This document shows positions 24,316 through 52,799 of a stretch of DNA of 64,000 nt, piece by piece (position 1 is the stretch's first letter; each line of letters starts with the position of its first letter). Origin of the DNA: Escherichia phage vB_EcoM_VR20; sequence record NC_028894.1; one strand, written 5' to 3'. Position numbers and translations under genes: made by a program. Below the pieces are notes generated by a model. The model was not told the DNA's origin. It did no database searches and saw only the letters and a list, made by a program, of their open reading frames with translations.

Positions 24316-24549
24316 TTATTCCAAAACAGTTTTAATGGTTGTTGCATTACGCTCTTTTAGAGCTCTTAATAGGCTATGGCAATTTTCAAGAATAGGCACC
24401 GTTTTATAGTTCATTTCGGCGCGAGCCCACTCGGATTTATAGTACGATTTCCAACGAGAGAAAAAGTACTTTTTATATTCTACTGAATAGGCTACCAGGT
24501 TTTCACCTTTTGAGTTCAGACCTGAAAACTTAACTAGACGAAATTTCAT
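24316..24549 (-). CDS. Hypothetical protein (T4 31.2 position)
   Basis: 77 aa, ATG start. Confidence 0.5.
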   Translation of the reverse strand: MKFRLVKFSGLNSKGENLVAYSVEYKKYFFSRWKSYYKSEWARAEMNYKTVPILENCHSLLRALKERNATTIKTVLE

Positions 24550-25130
24550 TATTCACCACAAAATTCGTTAATGTTTTCCCAGTTCAATTTGTCTAAACTA
24601 CGCTTAGGCACATTGAACACCTCAATTCCTGCATTCTTCAGGATATCATCCCAACCAGGAATATTCTTATCATACGTTTCACAGTAAACCAATTTCTTGA
24701 TTCCTGATTGAGAAATTGCCTTTGCACAATCAGGACAAGGAGAAAGCGTCACATACATAGTAGCGCCTTCAATTGACGAACCCATTCTGGCTGCGAACAG
24801 AATCGCATTAAGCTCGGCATGAATTTCGTTGTTCTTTGACCATGCAGAATGTTCTTCGCGATGGGCTTTCGCCAATACAAAACGGTCAACCTTACTGAAT
24901 CTCACACATTCTGGCTTATGACCAGGGACGAGAACGGGTTTAGGTTTATTCAGTAACCAACCTTGCTCTTCCGCATGCTCGCAACAGTTGACCCCACCTG
25001 CAGGGGAACCATTATACCCTGTAGAAATAATGCGACCATTCTTTTCAATAACAGCTCCCACTTTCCAGGAGCAACATTTTGATTCTTGAGATACAAGGTA
25101 TGCGATTTGCAGAACAGTAGTTGGTTTCAT
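24549..25130 (-). CDS. cd: dCMP deaminase
   Basis: 193 aa, same as T4 Cd; zinc motifs HAE and PCxxC. Confidence 0.9.
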   Translation of the reverse strand: MKPTTVLQIAYLVSQESKCCSWKVGAVIEKNGRIISTGYNGSPAGGVNCCEHAEEQGWLLNKPKPVLVPGHKPECVRFSKVDRFVLAKAHREEHSAWSKNNEIHAELNAILFAARMGSSIEGATMYVTLSPCPDCAKAISQSGIKKLVYCETYDKNIPGWDDILKNAGIEVFNVPKRSLDKLNWENINEFCGE

Positions 25131-25466
25131 TTACATCACCACGAGATAATTGGTTTTAATAGTTTCAACACGATATAATTCATGTCGCAATTTAGTAATG
25201 CTCTTAACATGTGTTGTAATTATACTATCACCATCGCTGAAGCGTTTTTTCTTATCGTCAAAAATCACCCCAAACATTCGCTCACCAATTTCTACAGGAG
25301 CTTCTGTGATAACAACCGCATCATAATTACTTGGGTGAATACTTTTAAACAGAGCATCATTCGCAAGCGTTACTTTGATAAATGCAGTTGTTTCTGGGTC
25401 CAACTTACGATGGTCACCTAAATCATTTTTAAGTGATTCTTTGAAAATATCCATTAAATTCATCAT
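25131..25466 (-). CDS. Hypothetical protein (cd.1 region)
   Basis: 111 aa, ATG start directly upstream of cd. Confidence 0.5.
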   Translation of the reverse strand: MMNLMDIFKESLKNDLGDHRKLDPETTAFIKVTLANDALFKSIHPSNYDAVVITEAPVEIGERMFGVIFDDKKKRFSDGDSIITTHVKSITKLRHELYRVETIKTNYLVVM

Positions 25467-25708
25467 TGAATATACACTCGCTGCGCTTCAACCAGACCAT
25501 CAGAACCCAATTTCAGTTGGGTCAACTGGTCACCACCTTTTAGAGTAATTTTCGGATTAATGACAATCATAAAACTGCGTGCAGATTCCTGAATAACTTG
25601 CAAAGTCGCAGCAGGGAATCGCTGCGATACGCGGTTAATCATCTCTTGAGCAAATGCCTTCACTTTTTCGTGAAACTCTTCAACAGTAATTGGGGTTTCG
25701 CTAAGCAT
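25463..25708 (-). CDS. Hypothetical protein
   Basis: 81 aa; ATGA overlaps. Confidence 0.5.
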   Translation of the reverse strand: MLSETPITVEEFHEKVKAFAQEMINRVSQRFPAATLQVIQESARSFMIVINPKITLKGGDQLTQLKLGSDGLVEAQRVYIQ

Positions 25709-26250
25709 CAGATTGTCTCCTGTTTTACTTGTTTAACGATAGAAGCTTTTGTGATATCGCCCTTGATAATATAACAATCTTCTGCAGTACCACGGTTTAA
25801 CAGACGCTCTGCCTCGCCTTCCGCATATTCTTTTGACACATGACGAGAGTTAATCTCAATCTTGCCATTTTTAACCACAAGCAATTTCCAAACTGATGCA
25901 AGTTTTACTGGCACAGGTTCAACTTCTGGCTTAACGCCAACTTCCGCTTGGATGAAATAATCAAATTCATCAGACAATGGACCAGCAGAAACAAACATTG
26001 CCCCATGATGCCTGTTTTCTGCACCAGAAATTTTTGCCAAATCCACAAAATTCTTTTCATCAATCAAACGAATCTCACAAACTTTTCTTCCACCGCTAGC
26101 AGTATCAGGGACAATCTTAACTTCAAACGGAGTCATACCGATGTATTTGGCAATTTGGTAATTAGCTGCCCAGCCTCCGGCAATAAACTGTTTTTTGGCA
26201 TTTTCAGATGCGAACTTGTAAAACTTGCCTTCTTCAAAGAAATTACTCAT
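25708..26250 (-). CDS. Hypothetical protein, member of the GKFY..AKKQFIAG paralog family
   Basis: 180 aa; N-terminal motif shared with the ORFs at 38642 and 39359; early promoter upstream. Confidence 0.55.
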   Translation of the reverse strand: MSNFFEEGKFYKFASENAKKQFIAGGWAANYQIAKYIGMTPFEVKIVPDTASGGRKVCEIRLIDEKNFVDLAKISGAENRHHGAMFVSAGPLSDEFDYFIQAEVGVKPEVEPVPVKLASVWKLLVVKNGKIEINSRHVSKEYAEGEAERLLNRGTAEDCYIIKGDITKASIVKQVKQETI

Positions 26251-26279: not shown

Positions 26280-26309
26280 ATTATACACCATCCGTGGTGA
26301 AAGTAAACA
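26280..26309 (-). promoter_or_regulatory. T4-type early promoter GTTTAC-17-TATAAT
   Basis: Minus strand GTTTACTTTCACCACGGATGGTGTATAAT, then GAGGAAAACAAA Shine-Dalgarno. Confidence 0.55.

Positions 26310-27066: not shown

Positions 27067-27067
<1 letters not shown>
26870..27067 (-). CDS. Hypothetical protein
   Basis: 65 aa from the internal ATG, which overlaps the pseT stop. Confidence 0.4.
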
Positions 27068-28285
<1,218 letters not shown>

Positions 28286-31960: not shown

Positions 31961-33139
31961 TTATAGATATTTACGGAAACCAGCAAGAACGTTCTCATCG
32001 ACGTCATTGTCAATCTGGGCTACCAGGTAAGCGGACAACTCAACTTCTTGTGGTGCTGATTGCACATTATCAGAGTTAAGATATTCGCGAATCCATGGAA
32101 TCGGGTGCTTAGTAGATTCTAACACGATTTCACACGGGAGTCCACATTGCTTCATACGAGAAACCGTCAGGTAATCGATGAACCGGTTAAGAATCTCGAC
32201 GCTCAGCCCAGGGAGTCCACCATCTTTAAACAGATGCACGGCCCATTCTTTTTCCTGACGATTAACTTCCATGAAAATGGCTGCGGCTTCTGCTTCGCAT
32301 TCGTGAGCGATTTTAACCCATTCGTCACCGTCAACACCAGTCTGCAGTTGACGAAGAATATATTGGGTCCCCTTAAGGTGGAGCTGTTCATCACGGGCGA
32401 TGAACTTCATTATCTTCGCATTGCCTTCCATGATTTCCATGTTCTTATGGAAGTTGAAAGTACAAGCAAAAGATACATAAAAACGAATGGCTTCCAGGGC
32501 GTTAATAACATGCAGGCAGAGATAAAGAGACTTCATTAATGCTCGTTTGGCGATAGCTTCTTGTTTGATAGCACGTTCCAAACGTTCGTCCGCTTCGGGA
32601 GTTTCTTTGGCCAGTTCAACAAAAGCAATCTGGTTTTGCCATTGACGAGTTTTATTCAGAACATCATCATAGTAATGACCGATGGATTCAGCTCGCTTCA
32701 TGATTGCATCATCCAACAGGATTTCGTCGAATACCTTCGCCGGGTCCGTGTAGAGATTTCGCATGATGTGCGTATAAGAACGAGAGTGAATTGTCTCACT
32801 GAATGTCCAGGTCTGAATCCATGTATCAAGACTCGGGTCAGAAACTAATGCGGCTAATGCTGCAGCTGGAGCACGACCCTGGATACTATCCAGAAGTGAT
32901 TGGTATTTCAGGTTGTTGGTAAAAATATTTTGTTGATGTTCAGGAAGCTTATTAAATTGGGCTCCATCCATCATCAGGTTGACTTCCTCGGGTCGCCAGA
33001 AAAAACTCAACTGCTTTTCTGTTAATTCTTCGAAAACTTTATGACGCTGGATATCATAACGGGCGATGCCCAATCCTGAACCGAAGAACATTGGCTCGGC
33101 TAAAACATCCACCGGAGTGGTATTAAAAACTGTACTCAT
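31961..33139 (-). CDS. nrdB: Ribonucleotide reductase beta subunit
   Basis: 392 aa uninterrupted ORF with recalled NrdB identity; no intron. Confidence 0.9.
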   Translation of the reverse strand: MSTVFNTTPVDVLAEPMFFGSGLGIARYDIQRHKVFEELTEKQLSFFWRPEEVNLMMDGAQFNKLPEHQQNIFTNNLKYQSLLDSIQGRAPAAALAALVSDPSLDTWIQTWTFSETIHSRSYTHIMRNLYTDPAKVFDEILLDDAIMKRAESIGHYYDDVLNKTRQWQNQIAFVELAKETPEADERLERAIKQEAIAKRALMKSLYLCLHVINALEAIRFYVSFACTFNFHKNMEIMEGNAKIMKFIARDEQLHLKGTQYILRQLQTGVDGDEWVKIAHECEAEAAAIFMEVNRQEKEWAVHLFKDGGLPGLSVEILNRFIDYLTVSRMKQCGLPCEIVLESTKHPIPWIREYLNSDNVQSAPQEVELSAYLVAQIDNDVDENVLAGFRKYL

Positions 33140-33177
33140 TTTATTTCCTCAATAGCTCATCCATGAGCATAATTATA

Positions 33178-35433
33178 TCAAAGTTTACAGGCGGAGCAGT
33201 CTTCTGCTTTAGGAGCTTCGATTTCGTAATCGTCTGTACCGGAACCATCTCTAGTGTTATGATAATAAAGGTTTTTTCCACCAAAATACCAGAAGTACAT
33301 CAAGTCGTCAAGCATAACTGACATCGGAACTTTTCCTTTCGGATAATTCTGCGGGTCATAATACGTATTCGCCGATGCTGACTGACAAATCCATTTCAAC
33401 ATAATCGCGACTTGGGTCAGATAAGGTTTGTTACCCTGCTTAGCTAACACCCATGCGTAATCGTACAATCCTTTATTGTGCTCAATATTGGGCACGACTT
33501 GATTAAAGGAACCCTCTTTTGACTCTTTAATAGAGACTGGTCCACGCGGAGGTTCGATACCGTTTGTACTGTTAGAAACTTGGGAAGATGACTCACAAGG
33601 CATAAGTGCTGATAATGTGCTATTACGGATGCCATGTTCAACCAGGTCTTCCCGCAACTGCGCCCAGTCACAAACGTAGTTTGGAGCTGCGATTTGGTCA
33701 ATCTTTTTATTGTACCAGTCGATAGGTAATTCGCCTCGAGCCCAACGAGTGTCTGAATAATATTCGCAAGGTCCTTTTTCTTTGGCGAGCTTGATTGATG
33801 CTCGGATAAGGCCATATTGTAATCTCTCGAACAGTTCATGCGTTAAATCGTTTGCATCAGCGTAGGAAGCGAAATTGCTTGCCAGCCATGCAGCATAGTT
33901 AGTAACCCCAACACCCAGGTTGCGGCGTTTTTTGGCTTTCAGAGCTTCTTTAACCGGATAACCCTGATAGTCCAACAGGTTGTCAAGAGCACGAACTTGA
34001 ACTTCGGCTAGCTCGTTAATCTTATCTTGGTCCTGCCAGTCAAAACTATCCAGAACAAATGCAGACAATGTGCACAATCCGATTTCAGCATCTTCGCTGT
34101 TTACATCAGTGGTCGGGATTGCAATTTCGCAGCAAAGGTTCGATTGACGAATCGGAGCCTTGTCACGGATGAACGGAGTGTAGTCATTCACGTTGTCAAC
34201 GAACTGTGGATAAACCCTGGCTGTCCCGGAACGTTCGGTCATGAATAATTCAAATACATCTTTTGCTTTGATACGTTTCTTACGAACTGTCGGGTCTTTT
34301 TCTAAGGCTTCATATAACTCACGGAATTTATCCGGGTTATCAAAATATGAATAATACAATTCACCGCCAGCTTCGTGTGGACTAAACAGAGTGATGTAAT
34401 CATTCTTGGCCAGTCGTTCCATCATCAGGTTATTCAACTGGACACCATAGTCCATATGCCTGATACGGTTTTCTTCAACGCCTTTGTTGTTCTTCAGAAC
34501 GAGTAAATTTTCAACTTCCAAATGCCAAATAGGATAATAAGCAGTAGCAGCGCCGCCACGGATTCCACCTTGTGAACATGATTTAACAGCCGTTTGGAAA
34601 TGTTTCCAGAACGGAATAACACCAGTATGCTTGACTTCACCCATACCGATTTTCGAACCTTCAGCACGAATCATGCCAACGTTGATACCGATACCTGCAC
34701 GCTTACTGATATATTCGATGATTGAATTAGCAGTCTTATTGATTGACTTCAGGGAGTCAGCCGCTTCGATAACCACGCAGGAACTGAACTGTCTTGTAGG
34801 TGTTCTGGCGCCCGCCATGATAGGTGTGGGCAACGAAACCTGTCGTGTAGATACTGCATCATAAAAACGGCAAACGTGCTTCAGACGGTCCGTTGGTTCA
34901 TCCTGGTGCAGTGCCATGCCGATAGCCATGATAGCGAATTGCGGAGTCTCGTAAATTTTACCGGTGGTTTTATCTTTAACCAGGTATTTCTCTTTCAACT
35001 GCATCGCGCCTGCATAAGTCAGGTCAAAATCACGTTCGTGCTTGATACGAGATTCCAGATAAGTAATCTCTTCGGCAGAATAACTTGACAACAGTTCCGG
35101 GTCGTATTTGCCTTCATTGACACAATAAGAAATCTGGTCAATAAAAGAACGCGGTTCGAACTGGCCATAAACATCTTTACGCAGAGCAAACATCGTAGCC
35201 TTCGCTGCAACGTATTGGTAATCTGGTTCTTCAACCGAGATAAGCCCAGCAGACACTTTGATGATAACCGTCTGAATATCGCGAGTAGTCATACCATCGC
35301 GCAGATGTGGTTTGATTGTTTCGTATAATTCATACGGGTCGATATTGGTTCCTTCACATGACCAGGAAAGAACTTTAATAATTTTCTGGCCATCAAAATC
35401 TTGAGATACGCCACTACTTTTTTGTACTTGCAT
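33178..35433 (-). CDS. nrdA: Ribonucleotide reductase alpha subunit
   Basis: 751 aa (T4 754); ATP-cone N-terminus; uninterrupted; GAGGAAAACATG Shine-Dalgarno. Confidence 0.9.
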   Translation of the reverse strand: MQVQKSSGVSQDFDGQKIIKVLSWSCEGTNIDPYELYETIKPHLRDGMTTRDIQTVIIKVSAGLISVEEPDYQYVAAKATMFALRKDVYGQFEPRSFIDQISYCVNEGKYDPELLSSYSAEEITYLESRIKHERDFDLTYAGAMQLKEKYLVKDKTTGKIYETPQFAIMAIGMALHQDEPTDRLKHVCRFYDAVSTRQVSLPTPIMAGARTPTRQFSSCVVIEAADSLKSINKTANSIIEYISKRAGIGINVGMIRAEGSKIGMGEVKHTGVIPFWKHFQTAVKSCSQGGIRGGAATAYYPIWHLEVENLLVLKNNKGVEENRIRHMDYGVQLNNLMMERLAKNDYITLFSPHEAGGELYYSYFDNPDKFRELYEALEKDPTVRKKRIKAKDVFELFMTERSGTARVYPQFVDNVNDYTPFIRDKAPIRQSNLCCEIAIPTTDVNSEDAEIGLCTLSAFVLDSFDWQDQDKINELAEVQVRALDNLLDYQGYPVKEALKAKKRRNLGVGVTNYAAWLASNFASYADANDLTHELFERLQYGLIRASIKLAKEKGPCEYYSDTRWARGELPIDWYNKKIDQIAAPNYVCDWAQLREDLVEHGIRNSTLSALMPCESSSQVSNSTNGIEPPRGPVSIKESKEGSFNQVVPNIEHNKGLYDYAWVLAKQGNKPYLTQVAIMLKWICQSASANTYYDPQNYPKGKVPMSVMLDDLMYFWYFGGKNLYYHNTRDGSGTDDYEIEAPKAEDCSACKL

Positions 35434-36058: not shown

Positions 36059-37716
<1,658 letters not shown>

Positions 37717-37720
<4 letters not shown>

Positions 37721-38058
37721 TTTAATTCCTTAACTGCCTTTTTGATGGCAGTAAAATCTTTGCGAATATCAAGAACCAATTTGTAAAGATGTTTAATTGT
37801 ATCTGTATCAAAATATGATACCACACAACGAGAATTGCGAATATCTTCTAATGAATACTTGCTTTCACTTGTGCCATATCCAATGATACCACTAATGCAC
37901 TTGTCATTAAGCGTATATTTCTGTGGACCATCAATAATATTTTTAGGATAGATGTAAAGACTCCAATCAAATTTTTGTTCAAGCGTATTAACCTTAACTT
38001 CAAGAATCAGTTCAGGATGTGCATCATCTTTAGCAAAACAAGTGTATTCAGTAAGCAT
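37717..38058 (-). CDS. Hypothetical protein
   Basis: Internal ATG with GAGGAAAATATA Shine-Dalgarno gives 113 aa; the longer track ORF overlaps its neighbour. Confidence 0.45.
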
Positions 38059-38308: not shown

Positions 38309-38400
38309 TTTATTCTCCAGTGTTTTAGTTGTTAACTCAGTATGGGACCATTATGTCATAGCCCCATTTGGTTGTACACTACTTTTTAAATTTTATCAAG
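38309..38400 (-). promoter_or_regulatory. Early promoter plus conserved leader repeat
   Basis: TTGTACACTACTTTTT upstream element, -10 CATAAT, leader ..CCCATACTGAGTTAACAACTAAAACACTGGAGAATAAAATG. Confidence 0.5.
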
Positions 38401-38641: not shown

Positions 38642-39010
38642 TTAGACCTCAAAAGTTGCTTTAATCAGTGCAATGACTTCTGCGGCATTTTTGTGATTGA
38701 CTTGCACATGAATGGTTTGGGTATCAACATCAGGAGCATCACTATCAACTTCCAGGAAGTGACAGAATTCCCATTCAGCGAGTTCAAAGTACTCATCAGC
38801 GTCACACATACTATTCAGGATGGTACCATCTTTCATTTCAACTTTTTCAACAAAATAATCACCTTCAATATAACACATATCCAGGATTTTGAAGGAATTG
38901 CCGTGTTGTTCCATCAACTTGACCATGCACGAATTATCATCAGGACTACCAGCGATGAATTGTTTTTTAGCAGCAGGGTCTAATACGTAAAATTTACCAG
39001 TTTCCATCAT
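38642..39010 (-). CDS. Hypothetical protein, GKFY..AKKQFIAG paralog family
   Basis: Start MMETGKFY.. with GAGGAAATTAAA Shine-Dalgarno; 8-bp hairpin gggaacat/atgttccc upstream. Confidence 0.5.
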   Translation of the reverse strand: MMETGKFYVLDPAAKKQFIAGSPDDNSCMVKLMEQHGNSFKILDMCYIEGDYFVEKVEMKDGTILNSMCDADEYFELAEWEFCHFLEVDSDAPDVDTQTIHVQVNHKNAAEVIALIKATFEV

Positions 39011-39068
39011 TTTAATTTCCTCATTTTTGTTGAGGGAACATATTATCATGTTCCCGTTGGTTTGTATA

Positions 39069-39296
39069 CTAAGCTTGAATCAAGCCCATATAAAATTCAG
39101 CGTCTTCCGGGTGCATCCCTTCGCAATATTCATTTTGCATAAAGCGAGTAAGGTCTTCAAGAGGACCTTGAACTTCAATTTGAATACTAAAGAATTGGGT
39201 ATCTTTAATGTAAGTCATACACAAAGAAGGATACCGATTACGAATAACTTCGTAAGTGTATTCAAAATCAACGATATCAATATTAACCTTAGCCAT
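39069..39296 (-). CDS. Hypothetical protein
   Basis: 75 aa acidic; GAGGAAAATAAA Shine-Dalgarno; hairpin ggtctat..atagacc upstream. Confidence 0.5.
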
Positions 39297-39358
39297 TTTA
39301 TTTTCCTCATGTAGTTGATAGGTCTATAATAACATAATCATAGACCCGTTGTAAACTG

Positions 39359-39722
39359 CTATTTGAAGGCTTTTTGTAGAAGTTCAATGATTTGGTCGAC
39401 GTTATTAGCATCTACAACACAATTAATAGAAACCGCCCCTGAAGGTGTTTTTGTATAACTGGAGTATTCACGGAAGCAATAAAACTCTTCTTCACTAAGT
39501 TCAAAATAATCATCACCCATACCATCATCATTATAGATTGCACCATTAGCACAAATTATTTCGGTTACATAATCATAGCCGTCTGCACTTGATATTGATT
39601 TAACTTCAAAACCAATCACCATTTTCTTGGATGATGTCGACCATACTAGCATTCGATGAACTAATATCAATGAAAGATTTAATACGATGTGGATTGAACT
39701 CATATTTTTTGCCAATTTCCAT
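39359..39722 (-). pseudogene. Frameshifted paralog of the 38642 gene: 38-codon frame A (39606..39722) plus 80-codon frame B (39359..39605)
   Basis: Both halves align in register with the paralog; the frames break at UGG-UUU-UGA over the A4 run at 39608..39611. Confidence 0.45.
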
Positions 39723-39803
39723 TTTTATTTCCTCAGTGGTTATCAGTAGTTGATGGAATCATTATGCACCGGGTCAAGGGACTTGTACACTACTTTTTGA
39801 AAA
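39723..39803 (-). promoter_or_regulatory. Promoter cassette, near-duplicate of the one at 57450
   Basis: TGTACA-17-CATAAT; leader CATCAACTACTGATAACCACTGAGGAAATAAAAATG. Confidence 0.5.
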
Positions 39804-39832: not shown

Positions 39833-40744
39833 TTAAAGGCCAGCCAGAAGGTCGTCAAGACCATCATCAGAAGGCTCTGGAGTGCTTGGAGCAGTCGCAG
39901 TGCGTTCAGACTTAGCAGGTTTGCTGGAAGTGAAGTCTTCCATATCTTTATCAAAATCGTCCAGGTCAGCGCCCAGTTTATCGGCTTGCGCAGCAGCTTT
40001 AGAAGCAGCACCACCGAGAGCAGCTGTACCCATTACTTTAGCGAATTTCTTCTGATTCTCTTCAAGAGATTTAAATACCAGCAATTCATTCAGGTCAGAC
40101 ATTTCGTCCCAAAGTTTTTTCTGGAATGCTTCATCATTGATGCCAGCGATTTCAGACTGGTTCATGAATTTGGAATCATCGTAGTTTTTATAGCCGGAAA
40201 CCATTTTAGATTTCAGTACGAAGTTCGCACCTTCAAAAGGACAGGTTACATCAATAGCTGTTTCGCCCATGTCAACATCGACTTCAACCATCTGGTTGAT
40301 TTTGTCCATGATTTTCTTACCAAAGCGATATTTGAATACTTGGCCTTCGTTAGACGGAACAGCAGGGTCTTTAATGACCAGGATGTTAGCCCAGTAAGAA
40401 GTATTACGCTTCAGTTTACGATATTCGGATTCGTTTGTATTGTACAGGTCATTCTTATTCATGTACGCACACACAGGGCAGTTTTCATAATCGCCGTGAG
40501 TAGAAGTACAGTTTTCAATATACCATTGACCAGCATTTTTAAAGCCGTGGTTAACGAGCTTGATGAATGGAGATGGATTTTCTTCATTCTTAGAAGGCAG
40601 GAAACGAATAACCGCAGAGCCGACGCCATCAGTATCTTTCAGTTTCCATTCTTTTTTATCGTCAGAAGAGAAACCAGCACCACCTTTCAGTGCATTAAGG
40701 GAAGCAGCCAGGTCAGCAGGGTTTTTACGTTTAAACATAGACAT
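39833..40744 (-). CDS. 32: Single-stranded DNA-binding protein gp32
   Basis: 303 aa (T4 301); strong recalled identity; zinc ligand residues and acidic C-terminus. Confidence 0.92.
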
Positions 40745-40804
40745 ATGATTTTCCTTAGATTATTTGATTTTTAGCAGTTGTTTTGATTACGTATTAATTA
40801 TACT
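40745..40804 (-). promoter_or_regulatory. Candidate gene 32 translational operator
   Basis: Hairpin cttcaa-tcact-ttgaag followed by an A/U-rich stretch before the Shine-Dalgarno, as in T4 gp32 autoregulation. Confidence 0.35.
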
Positions 40805-41473
40805 TCAAAGTGATTGAAGCGTTATTTGACAGTTTTTAACGGTCTCGATGAACAATTTACGAGCTTCAAGAGAATCTATATTTAAGATTTTCTTATAGGC
40901 ATTTAGTTTGGTCGAATACTTTTCCCAAACCAAGTCGTTAGTCTGTTCATCATGTTTATTTATAATACCTAAAAATGAATCAAGCAAACAAAACGTTTCA
41001 AATGAGATAACATTCGATTGGAGAAGTTTGAAAATATAACTTGTATTCACTTTAGTATTATACTCGAAAATCTCTTGGAGCGATTTGACTTCGACTTTCT
41101 TACTGAAGTAATAGATGTTCTTTATATCATCTTCGTATACTTGTCTAATTCTTTTAAGTCTGCCAATGTATTCTCTATAAAATATCAGAGCATCGGCATC
41201 ACTTATATCGCCTATCCATGCATCCTGGTTTGCAACCAGGTTTGACATGAATATTAACGTTAATTCTTTGAGAGTGTACTTATCGCTAAGCTTTTCGAAA
41301 AAATACTTATCGCGACGTTTTTGATAAGCACTATCGGAGATTCGCATGGTCCAGTTATATTTGATAATATCATAACGACCCGAAAAATGCTGTTTGATGG
41401 ATAAGTACAGTTGGTATACTGATTTACCATTTATATATCGGTTGTTATTTGGAGGCATGCGAATCGTAATCAT
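40805..41473 (-). CDS. 59: Helicase loader gp59
   Basis: 222 aa (T4 217); strong recalled identity (KYDIIKYNW.MR.SD.AYQKRRDKYFF). Confidence 0.88.
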   Translation of the reverse strand: MITIRMPPNNNRYINGKSVYQLYLSIKQHFSGRYDIIKYNWTMRISDSAYQKRRDKYFFEKLSDKYTLKELTLIFMSNLVANQDAWIGDISDADALIFYREYIGRLKRIRQVYEDDIKNIYYFSKKVEVKSLQEIFEYNTKVNTSYIFKLLQSNVISFETFCLLDSFLGIINKHDEQTNDLVWEKYSTKLNAYKKILNIDSLEARKLFIETVKNCQITLQSL

Positions 41474-43061: not shown

Positions 43062-46000
43062 ATGGCCGATATTTTAAAACCAGCATTCAGAGCAACATCC
43101 GGTCTCGATGCTGCTGGTGAGAAAGTCATTAATGTCGCGAAAGCTGATTACTCAGTTTTGTCAGACGGCGTTAACGTAGATTTCTTTATAGAAGAAAACA
43201 CAGTTCAACAATATGATGCAACGCGCGGATACAAAAAGAACTTCGCAGTTATTAATGATAACCGTATTTGGGTTGCTCAGCGTGATATTGATGCTCCAGC
43301 AGGAGCATTTACCCCTCAGTATTGGTTAGCAACCCGTACTGACCCTAAATGGGAAACTGTTGCATCTCCAACTCGTCAGCTTAATTCAGGTGAATTTATC
43401 GCAGTCGACTCAGCTGCAAGCTTTACCACATTTACATTGCCTCCGAACCCGACTGATGGTGATACCATCGTTATTAAAGATATCGGCGGCAATACTGGTT
43501 ATAATGAAATCAAAGTTCAATCGAGCAACGTGCCTGGTCAAGGTAACCAAAAAATTGTTCGTTTTGGTAATCAGTATTCAGAAGTTTTAATTACCAAACC
43601 GTTCTCTTATAATATGCTTATTTTCTCCAACCGCCTTTGGCAGTTCTGGGAAGCAGGTAACGAAGAACGCGGAATAAGAATTGAACCAAGCTCTGGTAAA
43701 TATCGAACTCAAGCATCAGATTTTATTATGCGTCATTATACGACTGCAGAAAAAATTACATTTGTTCTTCCTAAGTATGCTAACCAAGGTGATATTGTCA
43801 AATCGGTAGACATAGATGGATTAGGGCCATTATATCACCTGGATGTTGAAACGTTTGACGAGTCAAGCTCTCTGGGTAAACAGGGCCAACACAGTATGGA
43901 ATTCCGTACAACTGGTGATGGCTTCTTCGTGTATAACGCAGTTGAAAAACTGTGGGTAACCTGGGACGGTGATAACAAAACTCGTTTGCGTGTAATTCGT
44001 GACAATGTAAAATTGTTACCAAACGAAAGTATCATCGTGTTCGGTAATGATAACAACACCTCGCAGACAATTAACATTGACCTTCCAACAGGTGTTCGTC
44101 AGGGTGATGTTGTTAAGATTGCTCTGAACTATCTCCGCAAGGCACAGACGGTTAATATTAGAGCTTCGGCTACTGATAAAATTGCATCTTCTGTTCAGTT
44201 GCTTCAGTTCCCGAAACGTTCGGAATATCCGCCGGACACTGAATGGGTATTTGTTGACTCTTTGACTTTCAATGGTAATATAAGTTATACTCCGGTTATT
44301 GAATTAAGTTACATGGAAGATACGGTTAATAACATTAACTACTGGGTTGTTGCTCAGAACGTTCCGACTATTGAGCGTGTTGACTCGAAGGATGATTTGA
44401 CCCGTGCTCGTCTGGGTGTTATTGCATTAGCTAACCAGGCTCAGGCTAACGTTGACCATGAAAATAACCCTGAAAAAGAATTAGCAATTACCCCGCAGAC
44501 TTTGGCTAACCGTGTGGCTACTGAATCACGTCGTGGTATTGCACGAATTGCTAACACTGCCCAGGTGAACCAGGATACGACTTTTGCTTTCCAGGACGAC
44601 ATCATCATCTCTCCGAAAAAGTTAAACGAACGTACAGCTACAGAAACACGTCGTGGTGTCGCAGAAATCGCCACACAACAAGAAACTGATGCAGGCACTG
44701 ATGATACTACCATCATCACTCCACGCAAGCTACAAGCTCGTCAGGGCTCAGAAAGCCTATCTGGTATCGTTAAGTATGTTCCTACTACCGGGACTACTCC
44801 AGCGACTTCTAGAGCAACTATAGGTACTAACGTTTATAATAAAAATACAACTACTCTGGTAATTTCTCCGAAAGCTTTGGACCAATATAAAGCTGACCAG
44901 AACAACCAAGGTGCTGTATATCTGGCTACTCAGTCAGAAGTTAACGCGGGGGCAACAAATACAGGATTCAGTAACTCGGCAGTGACTCCTGAAACATTAG
45001 GTGCCCGCAGAGCAACAGATTCAAACCATGGTTTAATCGAGATTGCAACTCAAGCAGAAGTTAATACAGGAACCGATTATACCAGAGCTGTGACTCCTAA
45101 AACGTTGAATGACCGTAAAGCAACAGAATCATTATCCGGCATAGCCGAGATTGCTACGCAATCAGAATTTGATAGTGGTACTGATGATACTCGTATTGCA
45201 ACGCCATTAAAAATTAAAACTAGACTGAATGATACTGCTCGTACTTCTGTTATTGCAGCAAGTGGTTTAGTAGAAACAGGGACGCTCTGGGACCATTATA
45301 CGCTGAATATTCTTGAAGCAAATGAGACTCAACGTGGCACCGCAAGACTGGCTACTCAACTTGAAGTTAATACTGGTACTGACGATAAAACAATCGTTAC
45401 TCCGCTTAAGTTGATGTCGAAAAAAGCCACAGAAGGCACCGAAGGTATTGTTCGCATCGCTACTCGTGCAGAAACTATCGCAGGAACAAGTTCAATCCTG
45501 GCTGTTTCTCCGGTTAGTCTGAAATGGATTGCACAGTCCGAACCAACATGGGCAGCAACCACGACGACCCGCGGCTTTGCTAAGATGTCTGAAGGCGCAA
45601 TTACTTTTGTCGGTAATGCAACTGCAGGTTCGACCCAGGCTCTTGACCTGTACGAGAAAAATAGCTATGCTATCTCTCCGTATGAGTTAAACAAAACCCT
45701 TGGTAACTTCCTGCCGCGTTTGGCTAAAGCAGCAGACTCGGATAAACTGGATAACCTGGATAGCACGCAGTTCATTCGTCGTGATATTGACCAAATCGTT
45801 GAAGGTACATTAACCCTTAGAAAGAACATAAGAGTTGATGGTCAGCTGGCGACTGGTGGTACCGGTGAATTTGGCGGCTCGTTGGCGGCTAACTCCACAT
45901 TTACTATACGCAACACAGGAACTCCGACCCGTATCGTTTTCGAAAAAGGTCCTGCCTCCGGTGCAAACCCGGTTCAGTCAATGAGCATCCGTGTATGGGG

Positions 46001-46961
46001 TAACCAGTATGGTGGCGGTTCGGATACGACTCGTTCTACCGTGTTTGAAGTCGGTGATGAAACATCTAACCACTTTTATTCGCAACGGAATAATCTTGGT
46101 AATATTACTTTCAGCATAAACGGTACAGTTCAACCGATTAACGTTAATGCATCCGGAACATTGAATGCTAATGGCGCGGCAACATTTGGACGTTCGGTGA
46201 CAGCACAAGGTGAATTTATAACCTATAGTGCAAACGCATTTAGAGCTATTAATGGTAATTACGGATTCTTTATTCGTAACGATAATGCTAATATCTATTT
46301 TATGCTAACTAATTCAGGTGACCAGACCGGTGGTTTTAATGGATTACGTCCTTTAGCTATTAATAATGCATCTGGCCAGGTTACAATTGGCGAAGGATTA
46401 ATTATTGCTAAAGGAGCTACTATAAATTCAGGTGGTTTAACTGTTAACTCAAGAATTCGTTCTCAAGGTGCTAAACCCGCTGACCTTTATTCTAGAAAAC
46501 CTGATGCAGATAATACAGGCTTCTGGTCTGTTGAAGTTAATGACTCTGCGACATATAATCAGTTCCCGGGTTATTTCAAAATGGTTGAAAAGACCAATGA
46601 AGTAACTGGCCTGCCTTATTTGGAGCGTGGTGAAGAAGTTAAATCACCGGGTACATTAACTCAGTTTGGTAATACGCTGAATTCACTCTATCAAGACTGG
46701 ATTACTTATCCGAATACGGCTAATGCCAGCACGACCCGCTGGACTCGTACATGGCAGCAGAACAAAAACGCATGGTCTGGTTTTGTTCAGGTCTTTGATG
46801 GTGGTAACCCGCCGCAGCCGTCGGATATTGGTGCATTGCCTGCTGATAACGCTTCGATGAGTAACCTGACCATCAGGGATTGGTTAAGAATCGGTAACGT
46901 ACGTATTGTTCCGGACCCAGTAACTAAATCCGTTAAATTCGAATGGATTGATACACCATAA
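43062..46961 (+). CDS. 34: Long tail fibre proximal subunit gp34
   Basis: 1299 aa (T4 1289); internal repeats of the ..ETRRG.AEIATQ.E.. type. Confidence 0.9.
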   Translation: MADILKPAFRATSGLDAAGEKVINVAKADYSVLSDGVNVDFFIEENTVQQYDATRGYKKNFAVINDNRIWVAQRDIDAPAGAFTPQYWLATRTDPKWETVASPTRQLNSGEFIAVDSAASFTTFTLPPNPTDGDTIVIKDIGGNTGYNEIKVQSSNVPGQGNQKIVRFGNQYSEVLITKPFSYNMLIFSNRLWQFWEAGNEERGIRIEPSSGKYRTQASDFIMRHYTTAEKITFVLPKYANQGDIVKSVDIDGLGPLYHLDVETFDESSSLGKQGQHSMEFRTTGDGFFVYNAVEKLWVTWDGDNKTRLRVIRDNVKLLPNESIIVFGNDNNTSQTINIDLPTGVRQGDVVKIALNYLRKAQTVNIRASATDKIASSVQLLQFPKRSEYPPDTEWVFVDSLTFNGNISYTPVIELSYMEDTVNNINYWVVAQNVPTIERVDSKDDLTRARLGVIALANQAQANVDHENNPEKELAITPQTLANRVATESRRGIARIANTAQVNQDTTFAFQDDIIISPKKLNERTATETRRGVAEIATQQETDAGTDDTTIITPRKLQARQGSESLSGIVKYVPTTGTTPATSRATIGTNVYNKNTTTLVISPKALDQYKADQNNQGAVYLATQSEVNAGATNTGFSNSAVTPETLGARRATDSNHGLIEIATQAEVNTGTDYTRAVTPKTLNDRKATESLSGIAEIATQSEFDSGTDDTRIATPLKIKTRLNDTARTSVIAASGLVETGTLWDHYTLNILEANETQRGTARLATQLEVNTGTDDKTIVTPLKLMSKKATEGTEGIVRIATRAETIAGTSSILAVSPVSLKWIAQSEPTWAATTTTRGFAKMSEGAITFVGNATAGSTQALDLYEKNSYAISPYELNKTLGNFLPRLAKAADSDKLDNLDSTQFIRRDIDQIVEGTLTLRKNIRVDGQLATGGTGEFGGSLAANSTFTIRNTGTPTRIVFEKGPASGANPVQSMSIRVWGNQYGGGSDTTRSTVFEVGDETSNHFYSQRNNLGNITFSINGTVQPINVNASGTLNANGAATFGRSVTAQGEFITYSANAFRAINGNYGFFIRNDNANIYFMLTNSGDQTGGFNGLRPLAINNASGQVTIGEGLIIAKGATINSGGLTVNSRIRSQGAKPADLYSRKPDADNTGFWSVEVNDSATYNQFPGYFKMVEKTNEVTGLPYLERGEEVKSPGTLTQFGNTLNSLYQDWITYPNTANASTTRWTRTWQQNKNAWSGFVQVFDGGNPPQPSDIGALPADNASMSNLTIRDWLRIGNVRIVPDPVTKSVKFEWIDTP

Positions 46962-46969
46962 GAGGTATT

Positions 46970-48106
46970 ATGGAAAGATTTATGGCTGAATTTGGACAGG
47001 GATATGTCCATGTTCCCGTGCTTTCTGAAAATAACGCAGTAAGATATAAATTGTCGATTGCTGGGACTTGTACCAAATCGCCAAACTATCCCTACGTTAA
47101 GTTTCAAGATGAGGCCTTCGGGCCTCAGACATTCCAGAATGGATTAAACCTTATTGAGATTGACCCAGTAACAAATACAATCACTGCAACCAAAAACTAT
47201 GGTTTCACAAAAGACTATGATGTCATTTCACAGGCCTTTGTGACTTATATTAATTCCATCCCAGCGGGTAGGATTGTTTGTTTGATATCGCAGGGAAAAT
47301 TGAATGCTTCCCAAACTTTAATTGATTGGTTCAGAACACATGGCTCGACTGCATTTCCGGATAAGTGGTTGATTGACCAAGTTGATACTTCGTATTCGGC
47401 TTTTTATATCTCTGGTCGAAATGCAATCGTTAAAGAGCATGTGCTATATAATGACGGGGTAACTGTTGAGGATGTATTGACTCCATTGGAAATGGTGTAC
47501 GACGACTTCGCTGATGTGGGTGGCACAGGATTCCCTCTGCGCATCGTGGAAGACGGAAACACATATTATAGTAATAGTACACAAGAAATAAAACGCTTCC
47601 CCACAGACTCCCCCATCACTCCTGCGGCCGATTATAATATGGCCCCTGGTGATACTTTTTATCTGAAGTTTCAGCTGACATATGACCAGGCACTTAAAGA
47701 CCTTGGAACAACTCAGATGTCTGTTCGATTCTTTAGTGGTCAGACGATGATTCAGTCAAACGATTATGATATCCCATCTACAGGTCAAGCAAGTCCACCG
47801 GCTGGCGCATGGATGACGTTTGAACGTTATGTAGTTGTTCCACCGAATGCTGATGGATTTACATTGTATGCAAGGAAGACCGTTGCTGCTGGACAAGGTG
47901 GAGTAAGGAATATTTTCTTTACAGAAATCGCGCGACAAGAAACACAAGCTAAATCTGCAGAAATCGGTGTCAACGGCATAAGAATGGTTGTAGCTGGAGA
48001 ACCGGGAAATCTTGGTAATGTCATTGCACAATTGAATGATAAAAATGCAACTAAAGCAAGTCAATCTGGATTTGTATTTGCTGCAGAATTCCGTGAAAAA
48101 GAATAA
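46970..48106 (+). CDS. 35: Long tail fibre hinge gp35
   Basis: 378 aa (T4 372); position. Confidence 0.85.
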   Translation: MERFMAEFGQGYVHVPVLSENNAVRYKLSIAGTCTKSPNYPYVKFQDEAFGPQTFQNGLNLIEIDPVTNTITATKNYGFTKDYDVISQAFVTYINSIPAGRIVCLISQGKLNASQTLIDWFRTHGSTAFPDKWLIDQVDTSYSAFYISGRNAIVKEHVLYNDGVTVEDVLTPLEMVYDDFADVGGTGFPLRIVEDGNTYYSNSTQEIKRFPTDSPITPAADYNMAPGDTFYLKFQLTYDQALKDLGTTQMSVRFFSGQTMIQSNDYDIPSTGQASPPAGAWMTFERYVVVPPNADGFTLYARKTVAAGQGGVRNIFFTEIARQETQAKSAEIGVNGIRMVVAGEPGNLGNVIAQLNDKNATKASQSGFVFAAEFREKE

Positions 48107-48126
48107 GGACCTTCGGGTCCTTTTTT
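48107..48126 (+). terminator. UUCG hairpin terminator after gene 35
   Basis: ggacc-ttcg-ggtcc followed by TTTTTT. Confidence 0.6.
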
Positions 48127-48129
48127 CAT

Positions 48130-48137
48130 TATAAATA
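48130..48137 (+). promoter_or_regulatory. Late promoter TATAAATA of gene 36
   Basis: Exact motif about 25 bp upstream of the gene 36 ATG. Confidence 0.6.
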
Positions 48138-48162
48138 CTCTTATCTAATAAAGGGGAATATT

Positions 48163-48822
48163 ATGGCCGATTTAAGAGTAGGCTCAACGACTGGGGGCTC
48201 AGTTATCTGGCACCAGGGCAACTTTCCGTTGACGCCAGTAAGCAATGATTTATTTTACAAAACATATAAAGTATATACAGAATTCAATAAACCGCAAGCA
48301 GCAGATAACGACTTTGTTTCTAAAGCTAATGGTGGGAATTATTTAAGTACAGTAAACTTTGATAAAGACTTACAATTTAAAGATTCCGATGGGTATTGGG
48401 TTAAATTGGGTAGAAAAACCAATACATCCCCAATGTCTGCTACATATTCTTTCTCATTTAGAATGAGCAAAGGTATGGGTCTTGAGACATCGGATGGTAC
48501 ACCGTTTGTAATTTTCGACCCGACTACTGTTATAGGTGCAAACCGTCTTACTGTAATGGGTGATATCCTTGGTCGTCAAATTAAAGACGAATCAGGTCGA
48601 GTGTTTTCTCCAGGGAATACTCCGTCAAAAGCACAAGTTGGATTAAGTGATGTGGATAACGCAAAACAGGTCCAAATAAATAATAGTAACATACAATCTA
48701 TGGCTGGCGTTCTTTCAGCCCCGAATTTCATATCTAGGAACCCAGGTACATTGAACGAACACGTTCCTCGTATTGACCAGGTTGTTCTTAGAGGCACATC
48801 TGAAGATTTTGGATATTATTAA
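48163..48822 (+). CDS. 36: Long tail fibre distal connector gp36
   Basis: 219 aa (T4 221). Confidence 0.85.
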   Translation: MADLRVGSTTGGSVIWHQGNFPLTPVSNDLFYKTYKVYTEFNKPQAADNDFVSKANGGNYLSTVNFDKDLQFKDSDGYWVKLGRKTNTSPMSATYSFSFRMSKGMGLETSDGTPFVIFDPTTVIGANRLTVMGDILGRQIKDESGRVFSPGNTPSKAQVGLSDVDNAKQVQINNSNIQSMAGVLSAPNFISRNPGTLNEHVPRIDQVVLRGTSEDFGYY

Positions 48823-48830
48823 GAGGCATT

Positions 48831-51800
48831 ATGGCTACTTTAAAATCAATACAATTTAAAAGAAGTAAAATAGCAGGAGCCAAGCCTACTGCAGCTCAGT
48901 TAGATGAAGGTGAACTGGCTATTAACTTACGCGACCGCACGATTTATACCAAAACCGACCAGAACCAGATTATTGACCTGGGTTTTGCTAAAGGTGGACA
49001 GGTTGATGGTGATATTCTCCAGAACGGCACATTTAACCTCAATGGTAATATGTTCGTTTACGCTGGTAAGTATATTGAATTTTTACCTAAAACTGCCGGT
49101 AATGGTGCCTGGGCTAACCAGCACTTGAATAAAGCTCCTATCTTTGCAGATTTAAGTTCAACTACCTCAGTATCAGAATATCATCCTCTGATTAAGCAAC
49201 GTTATAAAGACGGTACTTTTTCTGCTGGTACATTAGTAAACGAAGGTAGTTTTAAATTCCATTATATTGATGAAACCGGTGATTCGAAATATTGGACTTT
49301 TAATCGAAATGGTAATTTCATCGTAGATTCCGGTAGTATTGAAGTTCGTACCGGTAATATTTCTGCTTCAGGCAATATAAACTCTGCTAATGGTATTATC
49401 ACCGGTCCTGAAATTGTTACTAAAAATATTAATTTTAGTACAAAAACATTTGTAGCTAATGCTAACATTGGATATGATTGGGTTTCTTTACCTACTTGGG
49501 TTTATAACCCACCGGCTGATGGTTCTGATAATACTACTAACGGTTTAAACTATTTGCGTAAATTACGTGCATCAAGTGCATCAAGTATTTTCCATGAAAT
49601 TGCCGATTGCCGAAAAGGCAAGCCACAAGAAATTTCTTGGTGGACCGGTGTAGGTCCGGCATCTTTCCAATGGGCGTTTGATACTAGTGGGCGTATTACT
49701 GCAGGTAAATCTATTTCTGTTGGTCTTCCTGATAGTGGTACAAACGGCCGTTATCCTTTAGATTCTGCGATTTCTATAGGTATTGCCATCGGTGATAACG
49801 ATACAGGTATTAAATGGGTCCGTGACGGCGTTATCGATTTAATGGCCAATGGTATTTCATCTGCAACTATTCTTAATAACGGTATTAATAGTACTAAAAA
49901 ATTGATGGTTGGATATAGTCGAGATTCTGGTTCTACTTGGGATTTCCCAAATAACAACCAAGCAATGTTTACTGCTCGTACTGATATTGATGGCAATAAT
50001 AACGGTGATGGTCAGACTCATATCGGTTATAACAGCAATTCTAAAATGTATCACTATTTCCGTGGCACGGGTCGTATGGCTGTTGGTATGGCCGAAGGGC
50101 TTATTGTTGAACCAGGAATTTTAGATATTAAAACCGGTTCTAATAGCGTTGCTATTAGAGCGGACGGAACAATTAACTCCACCCAGCGTATTTCTATGCG
50201 TACGGGCTTGTTTTTAAATGGTGATGATAATACTAATGCTTTATCGTTTAAAGCGCCTTCTGGTGTTGATGGTACTAAAACTATCAATTGGGACGCAGGT
50301 ATTCGTAACGGTCAAAACAAAAACACTGTAACACTTAAAGCTTGGGGTAACTCCTTTAACGCAGGCGGCGGTAACAGAGAAACTGTATTTGAAGTATCAG
50401 ATTCACAAGGTTATTATTTTTATGCCCAGCGTACAAATCCGGCCGTTGCCGGAGGTATAGGACCTGTCAACTTTAAGTTTAACGGAACTGTTGAAACAGG
50501 CCATATCATAGGCCTTGGTGATATTACTGCTTCCGGTACAGGTTCTTTTGGTGGCAATGTTACCATGACTAATGGCCTGTTTGTCCAAGGTGGTTCTTCT
50601 ATTACTGGCCAAGTTAAAATTGGTGGAACGGCAGATGCATTAAGAATTTGGAATGCTGAATACGGTGCTATTTTCCGTCGTTCAGAAACAGCATTACATA
50701 TTATCCCGACTAATAAAGATGCCGGTGAAAGCGGTGGAATAAGTAATCTTCGCCCATTAAGTATTGGTCTTGATAATGGTATGGTACAAATGCGCCATTC
50801 TGTCACGATAGGCGATAATGGTACTGGCGGTAATATGATTACTGTGGACAACGATAGCAAACTTGTTGTTGTTACTAGTAATAGTCGCATTTCTCCTAAT
50901 TTCCGTATGCAGATAGGACAAGCATCGTATATTGATGCTGAATGTACTGACACAGTTCGCCCTGCGGGAGCTGGTTCTTTTGCTTCACAGAATAATGAAA
51001 ACGTCCGTGCTCCGTTCTATATGAATATTGATAGAGCTGATACTGGTACATATGTTCCGATTTTGAAACAACGTTATGTTCAAGGCAACGGCTGCTATTC
51101 ATTAGGGACTTTAATTAATAATGGTAACTTTAGAGTTCATTATCATGAAGGCGGAGATAACGGTTCTTCAGGTCCACAGACTGCTGATTTTGGATGGGAA
51201 TTTATTAAAAACGGTGATTTTATTTCACCTCGCGATTTAATAGCAGGCAAAGTCAGATTTGATAGAAATGGTAACATCACGGGTGGTTCTGGTAATTTTG
51301 CTAACTTGAACACAACTTTAGACCGCAAAGTTACCACGGGCTGGATTAATTATGTTGATAGTGGTTGGTATAAATTAGCAACAGTAACTATGCCTCAGGG
51401 TGTGGCTACGGCCCAATTTAAAATTACCGGTGGTTCTGGATTTAACGTTGGTATTTTCAGACAAGCAACAATTAATGAAATTGTATTACGCTCGGGTAAT
51501 AATACACCTAAAGGAATTAATGGCGTTTTATGGCAGCGTGAAACGGATGCTATTAAAGACATAGCATATATTAATATCTCTGGCGATGAATATGATGTTT
51601 ATATTAATTGTGGCACCTATTTAAATAGACTTACAATCGAATATAGCACGTCAGAAAATGCTTCAGTAGTAGTTCATGGATTATACGGGCCTACCCAATC
51701 ACCAATAGCAGAACTTCCTGTAGACAGTGTTAAAGGACGCGTTTTTAAACTTCTTAACAATAGCTCAGGTGTTTTTGATGCAGGTAGTTCTAATATTTCT

Positions 51801-52799
51801 ACAAACGCTACATTTGTTGCTAATACAACCATTGGATTCCGTCACAAATCTAATGGTGACGAAAGCGGTTCCGCTGCTACTTTGTTTTATAATGATGGTA
51901 CTACGTTCCACATATTATTAACAGATAAAAATACCGATGCTGATAAAACTAAAGCCTCAGGTTCTTATAATAGCTTGAGACCTTTTTCTATTAATATTGC
52001 TTCCGGTAAAGTAACTATTTCAAACTCTATGAGCGTTTCTGGGTTATCAGAGTTTTATAATGGCCTTAACATCAAAAATAATGGAAGCATTAACTTTGAT
52101 AAATCAGGTACTAACCCGAGAAACATGCGTATATTCCATGCTGGCGATGCTTCTCGTGGAAACCGTATTGAAATAGCTGATGACAGTAGTTACTTGGTTT
52201 ATTTTCAACGTTATGCAGCCGGCGGCATTGTTTGTTCATTTAACAACTCTGATATGACCGGGGTGCAAACTCTTAACGTCGAGACCAAAATTAATACCCC
52301 ACAAATTGGCTCATTTGGCGTTAATACGACCAACGCACTTGGTGGTAACTCGATTGCAATCGGTGATACTGACACTGGTATTAAACAGAGTGGTGATGGT
52401 ATTTTTGATATTATTACTAATGCCGCCCGCCGCATGAGATTCCAGTCAGGTGATACTTATTCGGATATGAATATTAACGCCCCGAACGTTTATATTCGTT
52501 CTGATATTCGTTTGAAATCTAACTTCAAACCTATTGAAAATGCTCTTGACAAGGTTGAACAACTAGACGGTTTAATCTACGATAAAGCAGACTACATTGG
52601 CGGTGAAGTTGTTCATACCGAAGCAGGTGTTATTGCACAGAGTTTAGAAAAAGTATTACCTGAAGCTATTCGTGAAGTTGACGACATTAAAGGTAACAAA
52701 GTTCTTACCGTTTCAACCCAGGCACAAGTTGCTCTGTTAATTGAAGCAGTTAAAACTCTGTCGGCTAAAGTTAAAGAACTTGAAGCAAAACTTAATTAA
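48831..52799 (+). CDS. 37: Long tail fibre distal subunit gp37, T2-type with C-terminal chaperone-like domain
   Basis: 1322 aa; N-terminal half matches recalled T4 gp37; last ~110 aa resemble an intramolecular chaperone domain with coiled-coil end. Confidence 0.85.
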   Translation: MATLKSIQFKRSKIAGAKPTAAQLDEGELAINLRDRTIYTKTDQNQIIDLGFAKGGQVDGDILQNGTFNLNGNMFVYAGKYIEFLPKTAGNGAWANQHLNKAPIFADLSSTTSVSEYHPLIKQRYKDGTFSAGTLVNEGSFKFHYIDETGDSKYWTFNRNGNFIVDSGSIEVRTGNISASGNINSANGIITGPEIVTKNINFSTKTFVANANIGYDWVSLPTWVYNPPADGSDNTTNGLNYLRKLRASSASSIFHEIADCRKGKPQEISWWTGVGPASFQWAFDTSGRITAGKSISVGLPDSGTNGRYPLDSAISIGIAIGDNDTGIKWVRDGVIDLMANGISSATILNNGINSTKKLMVGYSRDSGSTWDFPNNNQAMFTARTDIDGNNNGDGQTHIGYNSNSKMYHYFRGTGRMAVGMAEGLIVEPGILDIKTGSNSVAIRADGTINSTQRISMRTGLFLNGDDNTNALSFKAPSGVDGTKTINWDAGIRNGQNKNTVTLKAWGNSFNAGGGNRETVFEVSDSQGYYFYAQRTNPAVAGGIGPVNFKFNGTVETGHIIGLGDITASGTGSFGGNVTMTNGLFVQGGSSITGQVKIGGTADALRIWNAEYGAIFRRSETALHIIPTNKDAGESGGISNLRPLSIGLDNGMVQMRHSVTIGDNGTGGNMITVDNDSKLVVVTSNSRISPNFRMQIGQASYIDAECTDTVRPAGAGSFASQNNENVRAPFYMNIDRADTGTYVPILKQRYVQGNGCYSLGTLINNGNFRVHYHEGGDNGSSGPQTADFGWEFIKNGDFISPRDLIAGKVRFDRNGNITGGSGNFANLNTTLDRKVTTGWINYVDSGWYKLATVTMPQGVATAQFKITGGSGFNVGIFRQATINEIVLRSGNNTPKGINGVLWQRETDAIKDIAYINISGDEYDVYINCGTYLNRLTIEYSTSENASVVVHGLYGPTQSPIAELPVDSVKGRVFKLLNNSSGVFDAGSSNISTNATFVANTTIGFRHKSNGDESGSAATLFYNDGTTFHILLTDKNTDADKTKASGSYNSLRPFSINIASGKVTISNSMSVSGLSEFYNGLNIKNNGSINFDKSGTNPRNMRIFHAGDASRGNRIEIADDSSYLVYFQRYAAGGIVCSFNNSDMTGVQTLNVETKINTPQIGSFGVNTTNALGGNSIAIGDTDTGIKQSGDGIFDIITNAARRMRFQSGDTYSDMNINAPNVYIRSDIRLKSNFKPIENALDKVEQLDGLIYDKADYIGGEVVHTEAGVIAQSLEKVLPEAIREVDDIKGNKVLTVSTQAQVALLIEAVKTLSAKVKELEAKLN

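Follow-up and report, generated by a model that had tools for sequence, protein, structure and literature searches.

Our analysis revealed that three small ORFs of Escherichia phage vB_EcoM_VR20, labelled "hypothetical" and located in two variable regions, belong with a probability of about three in four to GoF/MotB.1/Frd.2, a superfamily of early proteins already published for the Tevenvirinae. The window analyzed is a stretch of 64,000 nucleotides (NC_028894.1), and comes from a T4-like phage that belongs to the genus Gaprivervirus. The three ORFs, hereafter A, B and C, were all found on the minus strand (Table 1). A and B are paralogous frd.2 genes of the frd-32 variable region, and C, from the cd-pseT variable region, carries the same N-terminal domain, so that the small domain family across two islands of the original prediction was recovered. 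Searches with three profiles (Frd.2+GoF, the C family and a mixed N-terminal alignment) against the 845 stop-to-stop ORFs of the window retrieved only these three members. As judged from the main text of Kim et al. (2025; PMC12152347), both the family and its fold have largely been described already and C represents an additional architectural variant. The gain for the three ORFs is mainly one of annotation clean-up.

Table 1. Location of the genes, repeats and promoter-like sequences discussed in the text
Feature	Position	Strand	Description
cd	24549..25130		Landmark gene
C	25708..26250	-	180-aa protein; cd-pseT variable region
Early-promoter-like, C	26280..26308	-	GTTTAC, 17-nt spacer, TATAAT; spacer hairpin CACCA-cgga-TGGTG; read directly
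pseT	27067..27972		Landmark gene
frd	36915..37508		Landmark gene
Early-promoter-like, frd.1	38350-38378	-	
A	38642..39010	-	Intact frd.2b-type paralog, 122 aa, starts MMETGKFY
17-nt repeat, copy 1	39008..39024	-	ATGAGGAAATTAAAATG; ribosome-binding site and start codon, upstream of A; boundary of the frd.3 indel
Early-promoter-like, A	39034-39055	-	Hairpin GGGAACAT-gataat-ATGTTCCC
frd.3 ortholog	39069..39296	-	Separates B from A; outside the family; Pfam Phage_FRD3 (PF05798), E 5.5e-37
17-nt repeat, copy 2	39294..39310	-	Upstream of frd.3; other boundary of the 286-nt cassette
Early-promoter-like, frd.3	39326-39355	-	
B	39359..39722	-	frd.2a, ortholog of T4 Frd.2, split across two frames
Early-promoter-like, B	39761-39789	-	
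gene 32	39833..40744		Landmark gene

The frd.2 Paralogs A and B

After repair of the frame of B, A and B were found to be identical at 37 of 121 positions (31%; BLASTP pairwise E 7e-16), with a Smith-Waterman z of 19 and an observed score that was reached by none of 2000 shuffles. Both pass the Pfam FRD2 model (PF03197; gathering cut-off 29 bits), with 111.1 bits for A and 120.4 bits for repaired B, and both match PHROG 622 over their full length. The motifs quoted for the pair in the original prediction were also present, namely the core (DEYFELAEWEF in A, DDYFELSEEEF in B) and the C-terminal end (LIKATF and LLQKAF, respectively). The N-terminal block GKFY..AKKQFIAG..FEVK, which had been proposed as common to all three ORFs, is made of real pieces but is a composite: A and C have GKFY and AKKQFIAG in common, B and C have FEVK, and B itself reads GKKY..IKSFID..FEVK and does not contain the full set. 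Repaired B is 78% identical to T4 Frd.2 and is thus its ortholog, the respective value for A being 32%. The annotation of phage SP18 already names the pair frd.2a and frd.2b, A corresponding to SP18 frd.2b.

A presence/absence survey across T4-like genomes had been suggested as a check. Frd.2-like sequence was detected in 561 phage records and at 638 matched places, so that about 77 of these records would hold two matches. Copies of the A type with an identity of 60% or more were found in 65 records. The duplication that gave rise to A and B is old, since the two share only this low identity and both have been retained in a large number of phages.

The Single-Base Insertion in frd.2a

One copy had been predicted to be broken, and this is the case for B in the VR20 sequence. 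In the alignment, B carries TTTT at 39608-39611 (minus strand), while P479, SP18 and EAWsc9 carry TTT. As a result, the 5' piece ends in a stop after 38 codons (39606..39722, MEIGKKYEF...NGDWF) and the 3' piece continues in the +1 frame; removal of the T gives a 120-aa protein. The extra T was present in 0 of 23 related phage records, and the matches listed as best all span 70 bases, against 71 in the query. Both halves of B map to a single RZ protein in two frames, each with 97-99% identity, and B was the only frame-split gene among the approximately 60 RZ proteins that were placed on the window sequence (~40 kb compared). The comparison of these sequences indicates a single-base insertion private to the VR20 genome rather than a pattern of decay; it stems either from a mutation of very recent date or from a lone sequencing error. 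With a broken ortholog lying next to an intact paralog, this genome offers a natural experiment on whether the two copies are redundant.

The alternative that fares best is that B is not truly broken and the extra T is a homopolymer error of sequencing or assembly, a reading that we take seriously and place somewhat below even odds. It is favoured by the change of one base only, within a T run, in a gene with no other disabling change whose halves match the RZ protein so closely, and by the absence of the extra T from all 23 relatives; it is weakened by the T run of four, short for such an error, and by B being the sole frame-split, since one such case per ~60 genes means that the assembly is not generally error-prone.

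The context of the insertion deserves a comment. At 39605-39620 (minus strand) it can be read directly as GGUGAU UGG UUU UGA A (GGUGAUUGGUUUUGAA in the window), where the extra T creates UUU UGA in the upstream frame and GGUGAU, complementary to the 3' end of 16S rRNA, stands three bases upstream of UUU. This arrangement is like the +1 frameshift site of prfB, with GGUGAU, a 3-nt spacer, the slippery UUU and then the UGA stop. The downstream piece of B also has an in-frame ATG 14 nt before the stop codon. By analogy with prfB, the extra T may happen to make a leaky +1 site from which B would still be expressed at a reduced level, an idea that we regard as highly unlikely. Should it apply, tRNA-Phe slipping by +1 from one UUU to the UUU that overlaps it would, speculatively, give exactly the wild-type 120-aa Frd.2.

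Predicted Fold and Putative Role of the Barrel

The AF2 model of A, with a pLDDT of 88.9, places strands at residues 7-10, 39-48, 51-59, 64-66, and 85-88; two helices stand between the first strand and the other four, after which come a linker of low confidence and a helix at the C-terminus. The regions of the protein are an N-terminal SH3/LSm-like barrel (residues ~1-89), an acidic linker and a C-terminal strand plus helix. When the model was compared with a viral model library using Foldseek, GoF (E 4e-6) and T4 MotB.1 (E 1.6e-4) were among 54 matches at E <= 1e-3, and many of the rest were uncharacterised proteins of T4-like phages. As modelled, A has in its first half the bent five-stranded antiparallel beta-sheet domain by which the family is defined. 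No solved structure matching the Frd.2/GoF family by sequence was found. For C, AF2 gave a model that cannot be relied upon (pLDDT 47.4), its N-terminal order being broadly similar (strand, helices, further strands). Structure prediction, proposed earlier as a check, therefore delivered the barrel for A, but because of the poor model the barrel fold of C is predicted from sequence profiles.

The main text of Kim et al. (2025; PMC12152347) describes GoF and MotB.1, together with Frd.2, as a family of Tevenvirinae proteins whose N-terminal barrel is LSm/SH3-like and whose members combine a five-stranded bent beta-sheet at the N-terminus with a flexible linker and a variable C-terminus and are encoded by early, non-essential genes. 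According to the same text, GoF(D25Y) makes gene 41 mRNA more stable by a post-transcriptional effect, neither wild-type GoF nor MotB.1 acted in a reporter assay, and no confident multimer models were obtained. The text also reports that amber mutants were viable, those of T4 frd.2 plating normally. The latter observation conflicts with the fitness call of a CRISPRi-ART screen of T4, in which frd.2 was the only "Fit" gene of unknown function (PMC11879866).

On the basis of the GoF(D25Y) phenotype, we tentatively propose that the barrel is a putative module that binds RNA or a host factor associated with RNA. By means of this module, proteins of the family would tune the stability or the expression of mRNA in early infection, and the variable C-terminal parts would give specificity. 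We hold this proposal as a whole to be possible, though doubtful. Domains of CarD, CdnL, Mfd, and UvrD/PcrA dock on RNA polymerase, and they are the model for an alternative that sees in the barrel a Tudor/SH3-like module for protein binding, with the host RNA polymerase as its docking site, so that the family would act on transcription and not on RNA. This seems unlikely to us. As modelled, A is alike to the SH3-like domains of FeoA and DtxR-IdeR and to bacterial Tudor-like domains (CarD, UvrD C-terminal domain) at the level of the fold only: identity to A is 5-15%, Foldseek gave no significant match between A and any of these domains, and A differs from them in having no metal-binding histidines and in the two helices inserted between strands 1 and 2.

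Stand-alone barrels were also observed. An 85-aa Frd.2-like protein of phage VR25 (A0A0A7HGH0) matched with a target-normalised TM-score of 0.93, and a 101-aa C-type protein (P0125) comprises the N-terminal domain only. Because of these two proteins, the barrel domain can be said to exist also without any C-terminal part.

C, a GoF-Like N-Terminal Domain With a Different C-Terminus

C is composed of a GoF/Frd.2-type N-terminal domain (~1-103), a proline/valine-rich linker and a C-terminal domain (~118-180), the latter predicted as strand-strand-helix-strand-strand. The gene is an accessory one and is located between the cd.2 and cd.3 homologs, a junction at which T4 has only an early promoter. 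Pairwise comparison of A and C gave 13 identities in 20 N-terminal positions (E 5e-4; z 5.2; 0 of 2000 shuffles), while B versus C was not significant (z 1.7). Non-significant alignment statistics had been named as the outcome that would speak against the whole family; this similarity is significant for A with B and for A with C, but not for B with C.

The profile searches, which had also been suggested as a check, do connect C to the family. In hhalign, the A family was aligned to the C family with 92% probability (E 5e-7), and when the families were widened with the sequences from all searches, C was linked to Frd.2 (91%, E 1e-6, C 5-103 against A 2-89) and to GoF (88%, E 3e-6). A Frd.2+GoF profile built without C sequences retrieved C only (E 6e-6) when run against the window ORFs. 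C falls in PHROG 5804 (E 3e-70), its residues ~5-55 cross-match the "goF mRNA metabolism modulator" PHROGs (goF PHROG 2980, 1e-8) as well as PHROG 622, and reciprocally A matches PHROG 5804. These profile results argue that the homology of C to the family domain covers its whole N-terminal domain and goes beyond a motif. The least credible alternative is that C is unrelated and its similarity to A and B a short chance or convergent motif, for although the pairwise similarity is confined to ~20 residues, B and C do not align significantly, C has no Pfam FRD2 match, a C-only profile finds neither Frd.2 nor GoF at library-wide thresholds and the C model is of low confidence, it is opposed by profile-profile alignments of ~90 columns at E ~1e-6 to two separate subfamilies, by the reciprocal PHROG matches, by a profile free of C sequences that picks C alone out of the window and by the broadly similar order of N-terminal secondary structure in the A and C models.

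Homology at the level of this domain does not make C a further frd.2 gene. C gave no Pfam match at E <= 1, FRD2 included, and it is not an FRD2 member, since the cut-off of that model is not reached; the model itself omits the first ~25 residues, i.e., the part by which the Frd.2 family is connected with C and GoF. The last ~65 residues of C bear no relation to Frd.2. The "third copy" of the original prediction therefore holds for the common N-terminal barrel domain but not for the protein as a whole. In an exhaustive search of 1.84 billion representatives with the C-only profile, eight matches were obtained, all C-type except one repeat-protein artefact (P0127); Frd.2 and GoF were not reached at library-wide significance, and no cellular homologs of C were found. 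C-type genes occur in 82 phage records, with 88-100% identity within Gaprivervirus and ~45% in JS98-like phages, and C is absent from T4 both at the cd.2/cd.3 junction and in the record survey.

The C-terminal domain of C was also considered as Frd.3-like. Pairwise comparison with T4 Frd.3 yielded 28 bits (E 1e-6, z 8.9), the similarity being an ungapped one of 38 residues with 29% identity that takes in the linker as well as part of the C-terminal domain (C 108-145; 25708-25920). The profiles rejected this reading (hmmsearch E 0.11, hhalign 0.2%, no PHROG cross-match), and since they give no support the similarity is probably due to chance.

Gene Order and Turnover of Cassettes

The region containing the findings, whose genes are encoded on the minus strand, is 93-96.5% identical to its closest records, P479, DK-13, and RZ. 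SP18 covers only 82% of it, at 95.3% identity, and no identical copy was found among the database records compared. In the window the genes follow one another as 32, frd.2a, frd.3, frd.2b, an 88-aa ORF and frd.1, compared with 32, frd.3, frd.2, and frd.1 in T4 and 32, frd.2a, and frd.2b in SP18. A and B had been called tandem paralogs. They are paralogs, but because frd.3 separates them they are not strictly tandem in the window, while in SP18 the two frd.2 genes are adjacent.

SP18 was found to lack one 286-nt unit consisting of frd.3 and one leader (39008-39310 in the window, within repeat ambiguity), and its frd.3 leader runs directly into frd.2b (L002 2190-2295). The unit is bounded by two copies of a 17-nt repeat spaced by 286 nt (family D1; direct repeat form ATGAGGAAA(A/T)T(A)AAATG), and an indel so bounded fits the promoter-early stem-loop (PeSL) model of modular shuffling (Arbiol 2010; Comeau 2014; PMC4122927). 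In phages P896, TH54, and 212, a match coverage of ~82-84% suggests that the frd.3 cassette is missing there too.

A separate early-promoter-like sequence precedes each of A, B, and C, and the ribosome-binding sites of the three are alike. Upstream of at least frd.3, A, and C, the spacer of 17-18 nt holds a hairpin that overlaps the -10 hexamer. Promoter-like sites are not enriched, 14 having been found versus 13.1 expected in shuffled sequence, and the likeness to PeSL is therefore consistent rather than shown. A shared 5' leader pattern, TCAACWNNATGAGGAAA, was tried as a window-wide repeat and discarded, with three matches within two mismatches, one of them exact. Under the PeSL model, the copy number and order of A, B, and C would change by recombination between short promoter/RBS cassettes.

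The rapid turnover inferred from the broken copy and the scattered family needs to be qualified. It applies at the level of gene cassettes: some close relatives have the frd.3 module and others lack it, the single frd.2 copy of T4 stands in a different order, and T4 has no C. The copies themselves are old paralogs in a locus of modular build, with a break in B that is private to the VR20 genome.

A few further differences and labels were recorded elsewhere in the window. The long tail fibre genes (43062-52793, plus strand), homologs of genes 34-37, encode proteins only 65%, 57%, 65%, and 31% identical to those of RZ, the nearest relative, while the flanking genes are 95-100% identical; this divergence is a host-range module swap. 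Two homing-endonuclease genes of RZ have no counterpart in the window (~33139-33181 and 40744-40826), the first located between nrdB and nrdA and the second, segG-like, between gene 32 and gene 59; the RZ segments matching the two sites are 25447-26175 and 34019-34657 (L007). Three further small RZ ORFs also lack a counterpart. Downstream of frd.1, a 113-aa ORF (37720-38058, minus strand) is annotated as a PemK/MazF toxin in EAWsc9, a label that looks unsupported, since no Pfam match was found at E <= 0.1.

Comparison With Known Systems

Canonical Sm/LSm (Hfq-like) proteins are recognised by an N-terminal helix with five strands, Sm motifs and Sm/Hfq structural neighbours. A does not present this combination, and Hfq/Sm proteins are absent from both fold-search lists for its model.

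With T4 Frd.2, A shares the domain order, the core YFEL.E.EF and the C-terminal helix, as expected of a full-length paralog, and A and B occupy the frd-32 region, as frd.2 does in T4. The window differs in carrying two copies that flank frd.3, whereas T4 has one, downstream of frd.3, and in the frameshift of its ortholog.

The PeSL system seems to be resembled in the short repeated promoter/hairpin/RBS segments between small early genes of variable regions, and in the coincidence of these segments with the edges of gene-sized indels. In the window, however, the hairpins are inside the promoter spacer.

A further close system is the GoF/MotB.1/Frd.2 family itself, in that the A model retrieves the GoF and MotB.1 models and that the N-terminal domain of C is closest to GoF. 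C departs from it in its other, longer C-terminal domain and in its location in the cd-pseT region. C-type proteins thus join a GoF-like barrel to at least one further C-terminal domain, which supports the view of the barrel as a reusable binding module.
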